Below, piece by piece: positions 12,345 to 18,225 of a stretch of DNA of 40,000 nucleotides (positions are counted from its first letter, which is position 1; every line of letters starts with the position of its first letter). A program made the translations under genes and the position numbers. The stretch spans positions 4,501 through 44,500 of the forward strand of contig CANRPR010000001.1 of NCBI GenBank assembly GCA_947632535.1. The letters run 5' to 3'. This DNA comes from an uncultured Clostridia bacterium (lineage in GTDB: Bacteria > Bacillota > Clostridia > TANB77 > CAG-508). The notes below the pieces were generated by a model. The model was given only the letters and a program-made list of their open reading frames with translations. It was not told where the DNA came from and searched no databases.

Positions 12345-13162
12345 TTATAATAATATCTTTGTATTTCTGTCAATAAGCTATCTACATAAATCATGTTTCC
12401 ATCTACATCTTGTAATTTTATGTTTGGAAATGTTCTTAACATTTTTTTATCTCCCCAAAGTGTGTATATAATGTTTGACATTGTTTTGTTTGAATATATT
12501 TTATTATATGTTTCTATTATTTGTTCTTTGTTTTTTACATTCAGGTTATGCTGGGCTACTATTCTTATTTCAAATAGTTTTATTGCACATGCTGTTATTA
12601 TTAAATTTAAGAACATGAATATTATTATAACTGTTTCAATTGTTTTTAATAATTTTATGTTGATTTTGCTTTTTGTCCAGTTAATGATTTTATCTATTTG
12701 TGGATTAAAGAAATGTATTAGAAGGATTGCAAGAATCCCCCATAACATTGAAAAGTATATGCATATTCTTCCATTAATGTTAAGTGGCATATTAGAATAG
12801 TCCCACCATTTTACTTTTAATATAATTTCAGCAAGAAGGCTTATTGTATATTCAGTAATAGCACCTACTATGAATCCACCTAAAAATAGTGTTTTATAAT
12901 TTTTTTTAAATTTCTGCAAAGCTAAAATCATTATAATTGCTCCAACACCGTATATTGTGCAAAATGGTCCATATAGTACGCTGGTTCTATTTTCTAATAT
13001 TCCATGGTTAGTTATAAGGCAATATGTTGTTTCAACAAAGCAACCTATAATACTATAAATCATAAAATATGCAAATATTCTCCATATGCTAAACCCTAAT
13101 ATAGTAAATTTCTTTTTTGCTTCATTTTTTTGTATTATTAGTGTATTTTTCATAAATTTCAT
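12338..13162 (-). CDS. Multi-pass membrane protein (resembles the 'putative ABC-transporter type IV' membrane family)
   Basis: 274 aa with about 6 hydrophobic segments. The motif YSIIGCFVETTYCLI...NRTSVLYGPFCTIYGVGAI resembles that family. Function is unknown. Confidence 0.6.
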   Translation of the reverse strand: MKFMKNTLIIQKNEAKKKFTILGFSIWRIFAYFMIYSIIGCFVETTYCLITNHGILENRTSVLYGPFCTIYGVGAIIMILALQKFKKNYKTLFLGGFIVGAITEYTISLLAEIILKVKWWDYSNMPLNINGRICIYFSMLWGILAILLIHFFNPQIDKIINWTKSKINIKLLKTIETVIIIFMFLNLIITACAIKLFEIRIVAQHNLNVKNKEQIIETYNKIYSNKTMSNIIYTLWGDKKMLRTFPNIKLQDVDGNMIYVDSLLTEIQRYYYKF

Positions 13163-13550
13163 TCCATTCTGGTTTTACTTTTTTTAATTGTATTGGTTTT
13201 AAATTTAAATCTGTAAAACAGTGTTTTGTTTCTGCATTCATAACTATATGTCCTGTTTCTTTGTTTGTAATTTTATATTCCATTTCTAGTCTAATTCCAT
13301 TGTACTTTTTAAATTGAGTATCTATAACAATTATATCATCAAATTTTGCTGGAAATTTATATTCACAACTTACTGCTAAGGTTGGTATTAATATACCTGC
13401 TGCTTCAATTTCTTTGTATGGCATTCCCATTGCATCTAGCATATAACATCTTGCTTCTTCTAAAAACCTTATGTAATTTGAATGATGTACTATTCCCATT
13501 TTATCTGTTTCATAATAATTTATTCTTCTTTCAAATATCATTTTTTCCAC
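13122..13550 (-). CDS. Acyl-CoA thioesterase, 4HBT/YbgC family (hotdog fold)
   Basis: RINYYETDKMGIVHHSNYIRFLEEAR is typical of YbgC-type thioesterases, and the ~140 aa length fits. Confidence 0.8.
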   Translation of the reverse strand: MEKMIFERRINYYETDKMGIVHHSNYIRFLEEARCYMLDAMGMPYKEIEAAGILIPTLAVSCEYKFPAKFDDIIVIDTQFKKYNGIRLEMEYKITNKETGHIVMNAETKHCFTDLNLKPIQLKKVKPEWNEIYEKYTNNTKK

Positions 13551-13571
13551 TCTTTCTATTAATATATCCTA

Positions 13572-15428
13572 TTATCCTACTTCGTCATCACATTCTTCAA
13601 ATTGTGAATTATATAAGTCTGCATAAAATCCATCTTTTTGTAATAGCTCTTCGTGAGTTCCTTGTTCTACAATATCACCATGATTCATTACAAGTATTAA
13701 ATCTGCATTTTTAATAGTAGATAATCTATGTGCAATAATAAAACTTGTTCTTCCTTTCATTAAATTATCCATAGCATCTTGTATTTGAAGTTCTGTTCTT
13801 GTATCTATTGAACTTGTTGCTTCGTCTAAAATTAGGATTTTAGGATTTGCCAAAATAACACGAGCTATTGTCATTAACTGTTTTTGTCCTGCAGAAATAT
13901 TAGTGCTTTCTTCATTTATTACCATGTCATATCCTTTTGGCAAAGTTTTTATAAAATGATGTATATGTGCAGCTTTTGCTGCTTCAATTACTTCATTATC
14001 TGTTGCATCTGGATTTCCATATTTGATATTATCCCTTACAGTACCACCAAATAGCCATGTATCTTGTAATACCATACCAAATATCTTTCTAATTTCTCCT
14101 CTTTCAAAGTCTTGTATATTATGTCCATCTATTGAAATACTTCCATTTTCTACTTCATAAAATCTCATGAGTAATTTTACAATTGTTGTTTTTCCTGCAC
14201 CAGTTGGTCCAACAATTGCAACTTTTTGACCTTCTTTTATGTCTGCTGAAAAGTCATTTATAATAGTTCTATCTTCGTCATATCCAAATTTTACATGTTC
14301 AAATTTTACATTTCCTTTTAAATCTTCTACTAATTTACCTGCATTTAATTTTTCTTGTTCTTCTGGTTGCTCTAGAAATTCAAATACTCTTTCTGCAGAT
14401 GCTATCATGGCTTGTAACATACTTGAAATTTGTGCAATTTGGTTTATTGGTTGTGTAAACTGCTTGTTGTATTGTATAAATGATTGTATATTACCTACTG
14501 TTATTTTACCTTGTATTGCCAAGTATCCACCAACTATTGCAACTCCAACATAACCCACATTTCCAATAAAGTTCATTATTGGATGCATTAGTCCTGATAA
14601 AAATTGTGATTTCCAAGCTGAATTGTATAATTCTTCATTTGCTTTTCTAAACTCTTTTAATGTGTCTTCTTCTCCATTAAAAGCTTTTATTACTGTATAT
14701 CCACTATAAGCTTCTTCTACTTGCCCATTTACATGACCTAAATATTCTTGCTGTGCTGTAAAATATTTTTGAGATTTTCCAACGATTTTTTTAACTAGAA
14801 ATGCACTTATTGGTAATATTATTAATGAAATTAATGTCATAGTTCCACTTATAGAAAGCATCATTACTAAGATACCTATAATAGTGCAAATTGCCGTTAT
14901 TATTTGTGTAATGCTTTGGTTTAGGTTTTGGCTTAGCATATCTATATCATTTGTGATAATAGATAATACTTCTCCATTTGTTCTTTTATCAAAGAATCTC
15001 ATTGGTAATTTATTTATTTTTATTATTAAGTCATTACGCAATTTGTAAGTTAATTTTTGTGAAACTGTTGTCATCATAAATCCCTGTATAAATGAAAATA
15101 CTGCACTTAATACATATAATCCTAATAACATAAATAATATTTGTGCTATTTTATCAAAATTTATTCCTGTACCACCTGATATTTTTGATACTATTCCGTT
15201 AAATATCTCTGTTGTTGCATTACCTAATATTTTAGGTCCTACTATGGTAAATATTGTACCACCTATTGCAAATATAAATACAACTATTAATGCTATTTTG
15301 TATTTTGATAAATAATTATTAATTAATTTTTTAGTTGTTCCTTTAAAGTCTTTTGCTTTTTCTGTTGCAGGTCCAGCTCCTGGTCCTCTCATTCTCCTCA
15401 TTGGAGGCATTCTTCTATTATTTTCCAC
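13572..15428 (-). CDS. ABC exporter half-transporter (fused permease + ATPase)
   Basis: A 6-TM domain followed by Walker A GPTGAGKTT, signature ISAGQKQLMTIAR, and Walker B ILILDEATS. It overlaps the upstream partner gene by 11 nt. Confidence 0.9.
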   Translation of the reverse strand: MENNRRMPPMRRMRGPGAGPATEKAKDFKGTTKKLINNYLSKYKIALIVVFIFAIGGTIFTIVGPKILGNATTEIFNGIVSKISGGTGINFDKIAQILFMLLGLYVLSAVFSFIQGFMMTTVSQKLTYKLRNDLIIKINKLPMRFFDKRTNGEVLSIITNDIDMLSQNLNQSITQIITAICTIIGILVMMLSISGTMTLISLIILPISAFLVKKIVGKSQKYFTAQQEYLGHVNGQVEEAYSGYTVIKAFNGEEDTLKEFRKANEELYNSAWKSQFLSGLMHPIMNFIGNVGYVGVAIVGGYLAIQGKITVGNIQSFIQYNKQFTQPINQIAQISSMLQAMIASAERVFEFLEQPEEQEKLNAGKLVEDLKGNVKFEHVKFGYDEDRTIINDFSADIKEGQKVAIVGPTGAGKTTIVKLLMRFYEVENGSISIDGHNIQDFERGEIRKIFGMVLQDTWLFGGTVRDNIKYGNPDATDNEVIEAAKAAHIHHFIKTLPKGYDMVINEESTNISAGQKQLMTIARVILANPKILILDEATSSIDTRTELQIQDAMDNLMKGRTSFIIAHRLSTIKNADLILVMNHGDIVEQGTHEELLQKDGFYADLYNSQFEECDDEVG

Positions 15429-17580: not shown

Positions 17581-17621
17581 TTTTTCTCCTCCTTCATGAT
17601 AAAAACACATCGTATTTTATT

Positions 17622-17650
17622 ATTATATTCCATACTACGCCTTTTTTCAA
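17622..17650 (-). promoter_or_regulatory. Sigma-A promoter of the ABC exporter operon
   Basis: On the minus strand: TTGAAA (17650..17645), a 17-nt spacer, then TATAAT (17627..17622). Confidence 0.55.
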
Positions 17651-17652
17651 TT

Positions 17653-17674
17653 ATTTCTTTGTGATTTCTTTGTG
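17653..17674. repeat. Perfect tandem 11-bp repeat (ATTTCTTTGTG x2) just upstream of the ABC promoter -35 box
   Basis: 17653..17663 and 17664..17674 are identical. Confidence 0.85.
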
Positions 17675-17716
17675 AATTTGTTTTTATATGTTGTCTATTT
17701 AGGATTACTAATGATA

Positions 17717-17745
17717 AAAGAGTACTTCAAAATCTAGTACTCTTT
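17717..17745 (-). terminator. Hairpin that could terminate the orphan intergenic transcription unit
   Basis: AAAGAGTACT (17717..17726) pairs with AGTACTCTTT (17736..17745) around a 9-nt loop. On the minus strand it is followed by TTTATCATT, which is only moderately T-rich. Confidence 0.4.
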
Positions 17746-17982
17746 AATATTTTGCATAGTTTTGGACTTTCGCCATTTTGCTATCAGAACAAAACTACTA
17801 TTTATGTGTTTATGACATTGTCAACGGAATTAAACCTCTTTGATACAAATCCATTGTTTTAATATACTGTTAAATTTCTCGGTAGAATCCTTAAATTGCT
17901 ACCCATCCGGGATAGAAATTTTACATTTCTTCAAATGAATCAGATATATTAAATATATTTTATTCATTAGTGTATCGAAGTG

Positions 17983-18114
17983 CTAGAACGTGAGCACCGG
18001 GCGGAACCCATTATTGTTGTTCGCATTGCCATTAGTCGCATTCGAATTCAACACGCCTGCATTAGCTCCATTATTGCAATTGCCACCGCGAATCAAGAAC
18101 GGAATGCTAGCCAA
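17983..18114 (-). other. GC-rich island encoding a DGR variable/template-repeat-like sequence (C-type-lectin-fold VR consensus), as an orphan 43-codon ORF
   Basis: The minus-strand translation from TTG 18114 is MASIPFLIRGGNCNNGANAGVLNSNATNGNANNNNGFRPVLTF*. It is rich in AAT/AAC codons and ends in the GC-rich GGGTTCCGCCCGGTGCTCACG followed by a small hairpin. The surrounding DNA is far more AT-rich. Confidence 0.45.
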
Positions 18115-18180
18115 TTACCGATTTAATCCCTAAATAATTATATATCATATTTCCCATTTTTTAACAAGTCTTTATTTGCA

Positions 18181-18215
18181 AAAAGATATAGCTTGATAAT
18201 CAAACTATATCTTTT
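18181..18215 (-). terminator. Rho-independent terminator of the acyl-CoA ligase gene
   Basis: AAAAGATATAG (18181..18191) pairs with CTATATCTTTT (18205..18215), with a T-run on the minus strand. Confidence 0.75.
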
Positions 18216-18225
18216 TATTGTCACT

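Follow-up and report, generated by a model that had tools for sequence, protein, structure and literature searches.

Template RNAs and the window locus

In the diversity-generating retroelement (DGR) of Bordetella phage BPP-1, the RNA comprises the 3′ end of avd, a template repeat (TR) and a spacer (Sp; Rfam RT-10), so that the TR lies between upstream and downstream RNA, both of which are essential. The spacer is structured and wraps the complex of reverse transcriptase (RT) and Avd; beside the priming adenosine (Sp A56) it base-pairs with the 3′ end of the TR, and this pairing is needed for cDNA synthesis (Handa et al. 2018). A further duplex between the upstream and downstream parts, known as “cPRT Stop” in the Bordetella phage DGR RNA, belongs to a type that has been reported for 207 DGRs. 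The subject of this paper is a DNA unit with the same layout, a TR set between upstream and downstream RNA, which lies in a 40,000-nucleotide stretch of an uncultured Clostridia genome (GenBank assembly GCA_947632535.1, contig CANRPR010000001.1, positions 4,501 to 44,500; hereafter “the window”, with coordinates counted from its first letter). The likeness to BPP-1 also includes two pairings: an 11-bp helix between a short box beside the TR and the core of an RNA of the Rfam family RT-14, and a duplex between a 5′ leader and the sequence AUCCC which would bracket the TR and may be analogous to the “cPRT Stop” duplex. By the same analogy we infer the priming site and the protein contacts of the window RNA. 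The locus differs from BPP-1 in that the RNA unit of its relatives is not followed by an RT gene on the same strand, while the window itself has no RT or Avd gene.

Two other arrangements catalogued by Wu et al. (2018) are relevant here. In the MutS-like (MSL) DGR cassettes, their Architecture D, avd and a small MutS_I gene lie beside the RT gene, a feature that the relatives of the window unit share, although in the window only the RNA gene is present. There are also DGRs in which TR and RT lie on different strands, as again they do in the relatives, and the same survey concluded for DGRs in general that co-transcription of TR and RT is not a requirement. As regards distance, the remote variable regions (VRs) of the DGRs of Treponema denticola and others can be up to megabases from the RT, while the TR of Trichodesmium is a highly expressed RNA of ~265 nt that has its own promoter and serves 12 genes. 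In these cases, however, the TR stays beside the RT and the VRs are what lies far away, whereas in the window it is the TR itself that is detached. As to RT-14, Weinberg et al. described RT-1 to RT-19 as structured motifs found beside reverse-transcriptase genes; RT-10 was placed between the TR and RT of BPP-1 and other RT motifs were suggested to belong to other DGRs, but RT-14 was originally defined simply as a motif near RT genes, with no assigned role. The window copy passes the curated threshold of this family (RF02921) but, unlike the defining members, is not near an RT gene.

The window unit is a genuine template RNA gene of a DGR, solitary but with all of its RNA parts retained. It has homologues that are TRs, it carries flanks of the TR type and it contains an RT-14 RNA, but it is not a complete cassette, for the window has no RT near the TR, no Avd or MutS-like gene and no target gene that carries a VR, so that what it holds is one component of a DGR rather than a DGR. 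The kind of element is thus a known one and the context unusual; what is new in detail is the intact, free-standing TR-RNA module, together with the assignment to RT-14 of a DGR spacer role with a fold supported by covariation.

Homologous loci and the identity of the repeat

Uncultured gut Clostridia have homologous units at 15 or more loci, which were collected by several routes. A HMMER search of 1.84 billion representative proteins with the TR peptide gave 48 matches at E ≤ 1e-3, mostly short Asn-rich open reading frames (ORFs) with the same scaffold, together with the C-termini of longer proteins; in all three cases where the contig of such a short ORF was read, the ORF proved to be the TR of a DGR locus that also holds a VR. 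A word-indexed protein search with the same peptide returned only two short “proteins”, both of them TR pseudo-ORFs, and these led to contigs L002–L004. A pattern search (CCGGT-N9-10-box) gave nine genome-representative loci, all from uncultured Clostridia or Clostridium metagenome-assembled genomes, and one metagenome contig, while protein look-ups added four further loci. Patterns for the box and for the RT-14 core found no member of the family in a viral collection.

The common layout of these loci is a target gene that includes the VR, then the TR, the box, a conserved RNA of ~230 nt and a terminator-like hairpin. In L002–L004, for instance, the target gene ends in the VR and the TR follows ~120–220 nt downstream, itself followed by an RT-14-like RNA, and in every relative that has a separate TR this lies within ~250 nt downstream of the target gene. 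On the opposite strand, and convergent with these, are genes for an RT (RVT_1, 6e-19), for Avd (bAvd, 7e-20; a score of 87.2 against a cut-off of 80 for NCBIfam DivGenRetAVD) and for a small protein with a MutS_I domain. The box and spacer RNA follow the TR in the ten relatives in which VR and TR are separate; in these same ten the VR is followed by TTTGATATG... or CATAGTGG... instead of the box.

The initial annotation of the window had described the repeat as DGR-like and had proposed comparing it with a second copy, to see whether mismatches are confined to adenines. Run on the relatives, this comparison gave 10–20 mismatches at adenine sites of the TR and none at any other base in seven loci (L004, L005, L008, L009, L012, L013 and L014), while in three more (L002, L006 and L010) 10–16 adenine-site mismatches are accompanied by 3–4 elsewhere, mostly near the 5′ edge of the repeat. 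Because the VR/TR differences are confined in this way to TR adenines, the relatives are genuine DGRs, active now or recently, and the assignment of the window repeat, whose homologues have neighbouring VRs of this kind, was therefore correct.

The window TR is 80% identical in DNA sequence to its nearest TR, that of L002, a locus which carries a cognate VR. Of the 24 differences between the two TRs, 19 fall at codon position 3, and counted as codons 16 are synonymous and 7 non-synonymous. The window TR has 12 AAY codons, compared with 11–13 in the TRs of the relatives, and it keeps the scaffold RGG.C..G..AGVL.S....G.A....GFRPVL, retaining the residues common to most of the listed family VRs.

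Much of what had been read from this island at the outset could be reproduced. The pseudo-ORF (17983–18114, minus strand, 43 codons) does translate as MASIPFLIRGGNCNNGANAGVLNSNATNGNANNNNGFRPVLTF followed by a stop, and the island is indeed GC-rich, since 100-nt windows peak at 0.46 GC against ~0.22–0.32 in the flanks (the mean of the 40 kb being 0.288); the GC-rich 3′ end GGGTTCCGCCCGGTGCTCACG (17989–18009) and the small hairpin GTGCT-N8-AGCAC (17980–17997) are also present. The number of Asn codons, given as 14 within a stretch of 24, must be lowered to 12. The repeat had further been taken to be small and solitary, of which the second part holds and the first does not: the unit spans ~450 bp (17712–18164), including an RT-14 RNA 3′ of the repeat and the promoter-like and terminator-like sites at its flanks, all of which had been overlooked.

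The target protein of the relatives is ~600 aa long and has a pseudopilin-like N-terminus, with a prepilin/pseudopilin-like helix (GITLIALVITIIVLLILAG); one source names a member PulG, and the target family includes 2,320 database proteins at E ≤ 1e-10. The protein gave no Pfam match and no PDB sequence match, and its AlphaFold model is too poor for a fold search (pLDDT 53, with the C-terminal domain below 50); any likeness to C-type lectins lies in the C-terminal motif pattern alone. In L019 and L021 (1–14250) the DGR cassette adjoins conjugation genes (TraG/VirD4, a VirB4-like ATPase, a sortase and CHAP), the RT, Avd and MutS-like proteins of L019 being encoded at 12388–14244, and the position of the target beside such genes suggests that it may be a diversified surface or mating adhesin.

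Several relatives depart from the common layout. In L024 and L025 (662–1760 and 433–1531 respectively, minus strand) the RT is split into two frames at the same point (~residue 187–196) in what are independent assemblies, while the VR, TR, RT-14 RNA, Avd and MutS-like gene are intact despite the broken RT; this could represent either a decaying DGR or a programmed frameshift. In L007 (1–369) and L011 (1911–3744) a VR-like gene end directly abuts the box and spacer RNA and there is no separate Asn-rich TR, the fused VR-box being followed in L011 by the RT, Avd and MutS-like genes; here the fusion could have arisen either by a recombination between VR and TR that deleted the TR or by collapse of the repeat during assembly. 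In L012 (4761–7941, oriented copy) the target gene with its VR, the TR and an RT-14-like RNA lie directly upstream of rplU-rpmA, and the VR shows 16 differences from the TR, all at adenines, with no RT within 6.8 kb upstream or 1.1 kb downstream. L005 has no RT in the 971 nt downstream, yet its VR/TR differences too are confined to adenines; with L007, this makes three loci in which no RT adjoins the unit.

The RNA unit and its RT-14 spacer

Some 100 nt 3′ of the repeat, on the same strand, the window matches the RT-14 model over its full length (model positions 1–144) with 52.1 bits against a gathering score of 48.1 (E=5e-6, local scan). RT-14 is also the best match of the window RNA in Rfam, followed weakly by RT-9, and there is no sequence similarity to RT-10. 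Among the relatives, the RT-14 copy that directly follows the TR reaches 56.9 bits in both L024 and L025, and scores of 33–43 bits were obtained in L002–L004, L006, L007 and L012; the window score is the second highest among the copies examined. Since RT-14 directly follows the TR in L024 and L025, this genomic context shows it to be the post-TR spacer RNA of the DGR family to which the relatives belong, where it forms the core of a structured RNA of ~230 nt. In these two loci RT-14 also lies beside an RT gene, though a frameshifted one, whereas in the window it does not, the nearest genes there being one of acyl-CoA synthetase type and an ABC transporter. The parts of the window unit, all on the minus strand, are as follows.

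17712–18164 (−): whole TR-RNA unit, ~450 bp, promoter-like site to terminator-like hairpin
18137–18164 (−): promoter-like site TTAAAA-16 nt-TATAAT, sigma-70-like, 10/12 in a consensus scan
18123–18131 (−): 5′ leader AGGGAUUAA, conserved, and TR-specific in the relatives
17978–18117 (−): TR, an Asn-rich pseudo-ORF with 12 AAY codons and a GC-rich 3′ end (17989–18009) that resembles an initiation of mutagenic homing sequence (IMH*)
17970–17985 (−): 16-nt box TAGCACTTCGATACAC, next to the TR on its 3′ side and the same in all family members examined
17971–17981 (−): 5′ strand of the long-range helix, ACUUCGAUACA, pairing with the RT-14 core
17934–17968 (−): extra hairpin specific to the window, a ~35-nt insertion relative to all relatives; inverted repeat with 17-nt arms, 88% complementary
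17881–17932 (−): two conserved stem-loops, P1 and P2, the window hairpins being read directly from the sequence
17755–17885 (−): RT-14 RNA (Rfam RF02921), the spacer core; covariance-model match above the gathering score
17834–17847 (−): 3′ strand of the long-range helix, UGUAUCAAAGAGGU, within RT-14
17813–17825 (−): short hairpin of RT-14
~17757–17800 (−): terminal helix of RT-14
17712–17748 (−): terminator-like hairpin AAAGAGUACU-loop-AGUACUCUUU, then UUUUAU; inverted repeat with 13-nt arms, 92% complementary

The site at 18137–18164 is a putative promoter, to judge from its sequence, and in the relatives a −10-like hexamer (TACAAT in L006, L019 and L021) is likewise found no more than ~5 nt upstream of the AGGGATTAA leader. 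The leader, which is identical in 11 of the 12 loci compared (L024 has the variant AGGGATCAA), probably lies at or near the 5′ end of the RNA; its AGGGAU can pair with AUCCC 3′ of the TR to give the bracketing duplex, and this partner varies only to GUCCC or AUCUC, both of which are wobble-compatible. The 5′ limit of the TR was placed by analogy with the VR/TR alignments of the relatives, while at its other end the order is GGGTTCCGCCCGGTGCTCACG, then TAGCAC, then TTCGATACAC. P1 consists of GAAGAAAU-GUAA-AAUUUCU and is followed by AUCCCGGA and then by P2, GGGUAGCAAUUUAAGGAUUCUACC; the RT-14 stretch also holds the single-stranded segment CAUAAACACAUAAAUAG. A strict terminator scan did not call the hairpin at 17712–17748, probably since its loop is longer than 8 nt, and at this position most relatives (e.g. 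L005–L007, L010–L012 and L024) have unrelated, GC-richer hairpins with T runs.

To examine the fold, 12 non-identical copies of the RNA were aligned from the 3′ end of the TR to the last helix. The consensus has 49 pairs, 21 of them with compensatory double changes, and 96.9% of the cells are paired; none of 500 column shuffles reached the observed values, nor did any slid register come close. The two helices that match the stem-loops P1 and P2 (helices 4 and 5) have compensatory changes at 3 of 6 and at 9 of 10 pairs respectively. The long-range helix, in which ACUUCGAUACA of the box pairs with UGUAUC-AAA-GAAGU in the RT-14 core, is a different case: all 11 of its pairs are formed in 12 out of 12 sequences, but because it is near-invariant it gains no support from covariation. 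In the window RNA one hairpin is in a short form, as it is in the Rfam consensus, while the other helices that could be scored are kept, as are all of the invariant positions bar one, which is changed to a G-U wobble.

Genomic setting, origin and possible use

Apart from this unit, the window is an ordinary low-GC chromosome segment of Clostridia type, with rplM/rpsI, lexA, obg, trpS, adhE, mur/dcw and purF genes and ABC transporters. It had been stated initially that no RT or avd gene occurs in these 40 kb, and two approaches agree with this. Pfam scans covered 30 ORFs of the window, each 100 aa or longer (10 more on the list, which overlap larger ones on the opposite strand, were left out), and found no RVT_1, bAvd, small MutS_I protein or lectin-type gene. 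When the relatives' proteins (RT, Avd, MutS-like and target) were used as tblastn queries, they matched only the TR, with nothing at E<0.1 for the family RTs. Nor is there a VR or any second copy of the repeat in the window, as judged by blastn, tblastn and an adenine-tolerant alignment. Beyond the window, a 39-mer of the TR with its adenines wildcarded gave 0 matches in the genome and viral collections, and as it missed even the window TR itself the source genome is evidently not among the species representatives. No cognate VR was present among the best 120 of the 2,320 target homologues, where the best candidate agreed at 23 of 25 invariant positions, or among the 48 representative peptide matches, where the best agreed at 22 of 25, and none of those 120 maps to the 61,485-bp contig from which the window is taken.

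The closest syntenic relative, L001, has purF, the synthetase gene (88% identical) and two ABC genes in the same order but without the unit. The segment it is missing corresponds to ~17690–18241, that is, the terminator of the synthetase gene, the promoter-to-terminator unit and little more, and at this position L001 has an unrelated ORF of 219 aa. The next promoter-like site, 17650–17622, is that of the ABC-transporter gene, and this element-less relative has conserved it. Upstream of the ABC-transporter promoter there is a perfect 11-nt tandem, ATTTCTTTGTG twice (on the gene strand CACAAAGAAAT twice; 17653–17674), which may be an operator for the ABC-transporter operon; a similar pair containing TCACA is conserved in L001. 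There is also an imperfect direct repeat of 29 nt (22/29), one copy of which lies in the TR-RNA promoter (18134–18162) and the other, 515 nt away, in the ABC promoter (17619–17647). A repeat of this quality is reached in 2% of Markov resamples, and it may be either a chance likeness of two promoters or a trace of insertion. It is the sole flanking repeat, but at this frequency, and with both copies promoter-like, it is too weak as evidence for insertion with target-site duplication, and that model was rejected. An RNA-mediated retrocopy is also unlikely, since the −10-like hexamer of the relatives sits, as TATAAT, before the leader in the window as well, while a copy made from RNA would have lost its promoter; this points to an origin at the level of DNA.

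Of the readings considered, the one favoured here, with a probability of roughly one half, is that the window unit is a recently orphaned relic of a DGR. In intact relatives, the RNA unit would be expressed from its own promoter-like site and ended by the terminator-like site. RT and Avd, produced from the opposite strand, would, if they behave as in the Bordetella phage DGR, attach to the spacer and reverse-transcribe the TR, making errors opposite its adenines, and the resulting cDNA would replace the VR, which forms the 3′ end of the adjacent upstream gene for a pseudopilin-like surface protein. A DGR like those of L019 and L021, which lie beside conjugation genes, might have been acquired at, or have recombined into, a variable intergenic spot, and everything but the RNA gene might recently have been lost, leaving an orphan that merely looks functional. 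As the target, RT, Avd and MutS-like genes are absent, the window copy cannot diversify anything in cis, and it would take the arrival of a compatible RT-Avd in the cell for mutagenised cDNA to be made again. We infer, then, that the unit may still be transcribed, that it has a history of deletion and that it currently lacks a function. In support of such a relic, RT decay does occur in the family (the frameshifted RTs of L024 and L025) and there are the RT-less loci L005, L007 and L012; moreover, the cognate VR was found in none of the sets searched, while the TRs of the relatives are all near a target.

There are, however, arguments against this relic reading. The unit shows no decay, in that the scaffold residues, the 12 AAY codons and the reading frame are all kept; the ratio of 16 synonymous to 7 non-synonymous differences points to constraint of a coding type during almost its whole history; and the invariant RNA parts that would face the proteins are unchanged apart from the one G-U wobble. 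The lineage-specific segment runs almost exactly from promoter to terminator, with no fragment of a target or RT gene, and so clean a module is not the outcome expected of two random deletions. In addition, the absence of partners applies to 40 kb, with ~21 kb of the contig, and the other contigs, lying outside the search. Several of these same points tell in favour of a tentative alternative, to which we give somewhat less credence, namely an active split DGR in which the TR-RNA is transcribed alone and serves in trans as the template for an RT-Avd(-MutS-like) set encoded elsewhere (e.g. on a resident conjugative element), with a remote VR as its target. Signatures of purifying selection in the TR and RNA, the lack of decay and the clean promoter-to-terminator insert would all suit such a role. 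So would the fact that TR-RNA units of this family have promoter-like and terminator-like sites of their own and lie on the strand opposite to RT and Avd, and, judging by sequence, any RT-Avd of the family should recognise the window RNA, in which the family-invariant box and RT-14 core are intact. Adenine-only VR/TR differences occur with no RT nearby in L012 and L005, VRs up to megabases away and a plasmid-borne avd-TR-brt acting in trans are both documented, and standard DGR pipelines, requiring the repeat to be within 1 kb of the RT, would overlook the arrangement. Nevertheless, neither a cognate VR nor an RT came to light, the wildcarded TR having no match and the nearest VR candidates falling short at 23 and 22 of the 25 invariant positions, with none of the 120 listed target homologues on the contig; a TR with no neighbouring target is unprecedented in this sample of relatives, and the RT pseudogenes and RT-less loci can equally well be read as decay. 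The more specific proposal of a naturally split DGR, whose free-standing chromosomal template, remote from its VR and from the RT-Avd-MutS-like genes, would be loaded by any compatible RT-Avd (for example one brought by an incoming conjugative element) so as to rewrite a distant gene, we rate slightly lower still.

Two further explanations carry much less weight, and a small remainder of the probability is assigned to none of the four. That a DGR fragment of some other organism was stitched into this metagenome-assembled contig is very improbable: although the source genome is sparsely sampled (its flanking proteins are missing from the contig index, their clusters are singletons on one 61-kb contig, and its ribosomal protein S9, which recurs identically in ENA samples ERZ27249300, ERZ27249285, ERZ27249068 and ERZ27249295, was met solely on low-coverage contigs of 1–2 kb), and although collapse of VR and TR is possible in other metagenome-assembled genomes, as in L007 and L011 with their VR fused to the box, the flanks are syntenic with L001 on both sides, so that two independent chimeric joins within ~600 bp would be needed, and outside the TR the unit is as AT-rich as the host DNA. 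There is next to no likelihood that the sequence is not a DGR part at all but a small gene for an Asn-rich peptide or the decayed 3′ end (VR) of a target gene, the latter having been among the origins entertained initially. An ORF with a TTG start does exist, and gene callers have annotated homologous TRs as proteins of 40–93 aa, but no Shine-Dalgarno-like sequence is visible before the TTG, the starts of the homologous pseudo-ORFs vary, and their frame and stop coincide with the frame of the target gene. A VR remnant would not be expected to have the leader, box and spacer RNA, which are TR features, nor the full set of AAY codons, given that VRs in the relatives have lost 10–20 adenines, and the RT-14 match above the Rfam curated threshold argues against any non-DGR reading. 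Both the small-protein and the VR-remnant readings were rejected on these grounds.

Two other features of the window, at some distance from the unit, may be recorded. A serine recombinase gene (Resolvase, Recombinase and Zn-ribbon, 526 aa; 29407–30987, minus strand) abuts a PASTA-only ORF of 111 aa (29079–29414), with murE-mraY-ftsW/spoVE-murG following immediately downstream of the pair. Here the dcw cluster seems to have had its pbpB/spoVD gene interrupted by an inserted element reaching at least to 38899, whose cargo would comprise a cohesin protein, a 1569-aa NPCBM/F5_F8/dockerin protein and a sulfatase-family protein. Topoisomerase I (21537–23616, minus strand) is split into two overlapping ORFs of 506 aa (Toprim and Topoisom_bac core) and 200 aa (end of the core and zinc ribbons); the gene may be frameshifted or a pseudogene, or its sequence may contain an error.

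As for what the unit means, the orphan Rfam family RT-14 gains a role, as the spacer RNA of a widespread DGR family of gut Clostridia, and its helix with the TR flank is reminiscent of the duplex at which the Bordetella phage DGR primes. It also becomes clear that DGR template RNA genes can exist as intact modules apart from RT, Avd and target, and surveys that are anchored on the RT and require the repeat within 1 kb cannot detect such solo TR-RNA units. If the present unit is a relic, it captures DGR decay cleanly, at a stage where the proteins are gone and the RNA gene survives. If the split-DGR reading were true, solo TR-RNA genes would be a hidden class of DGR parts, and use of the unit in trans would mean that DGR templates and enzymes are separable and exchangeable in nature, which would bear both on the interplay between DGRs on mobile elements and the host chromosome and on the engineering of multi-template DGRs.

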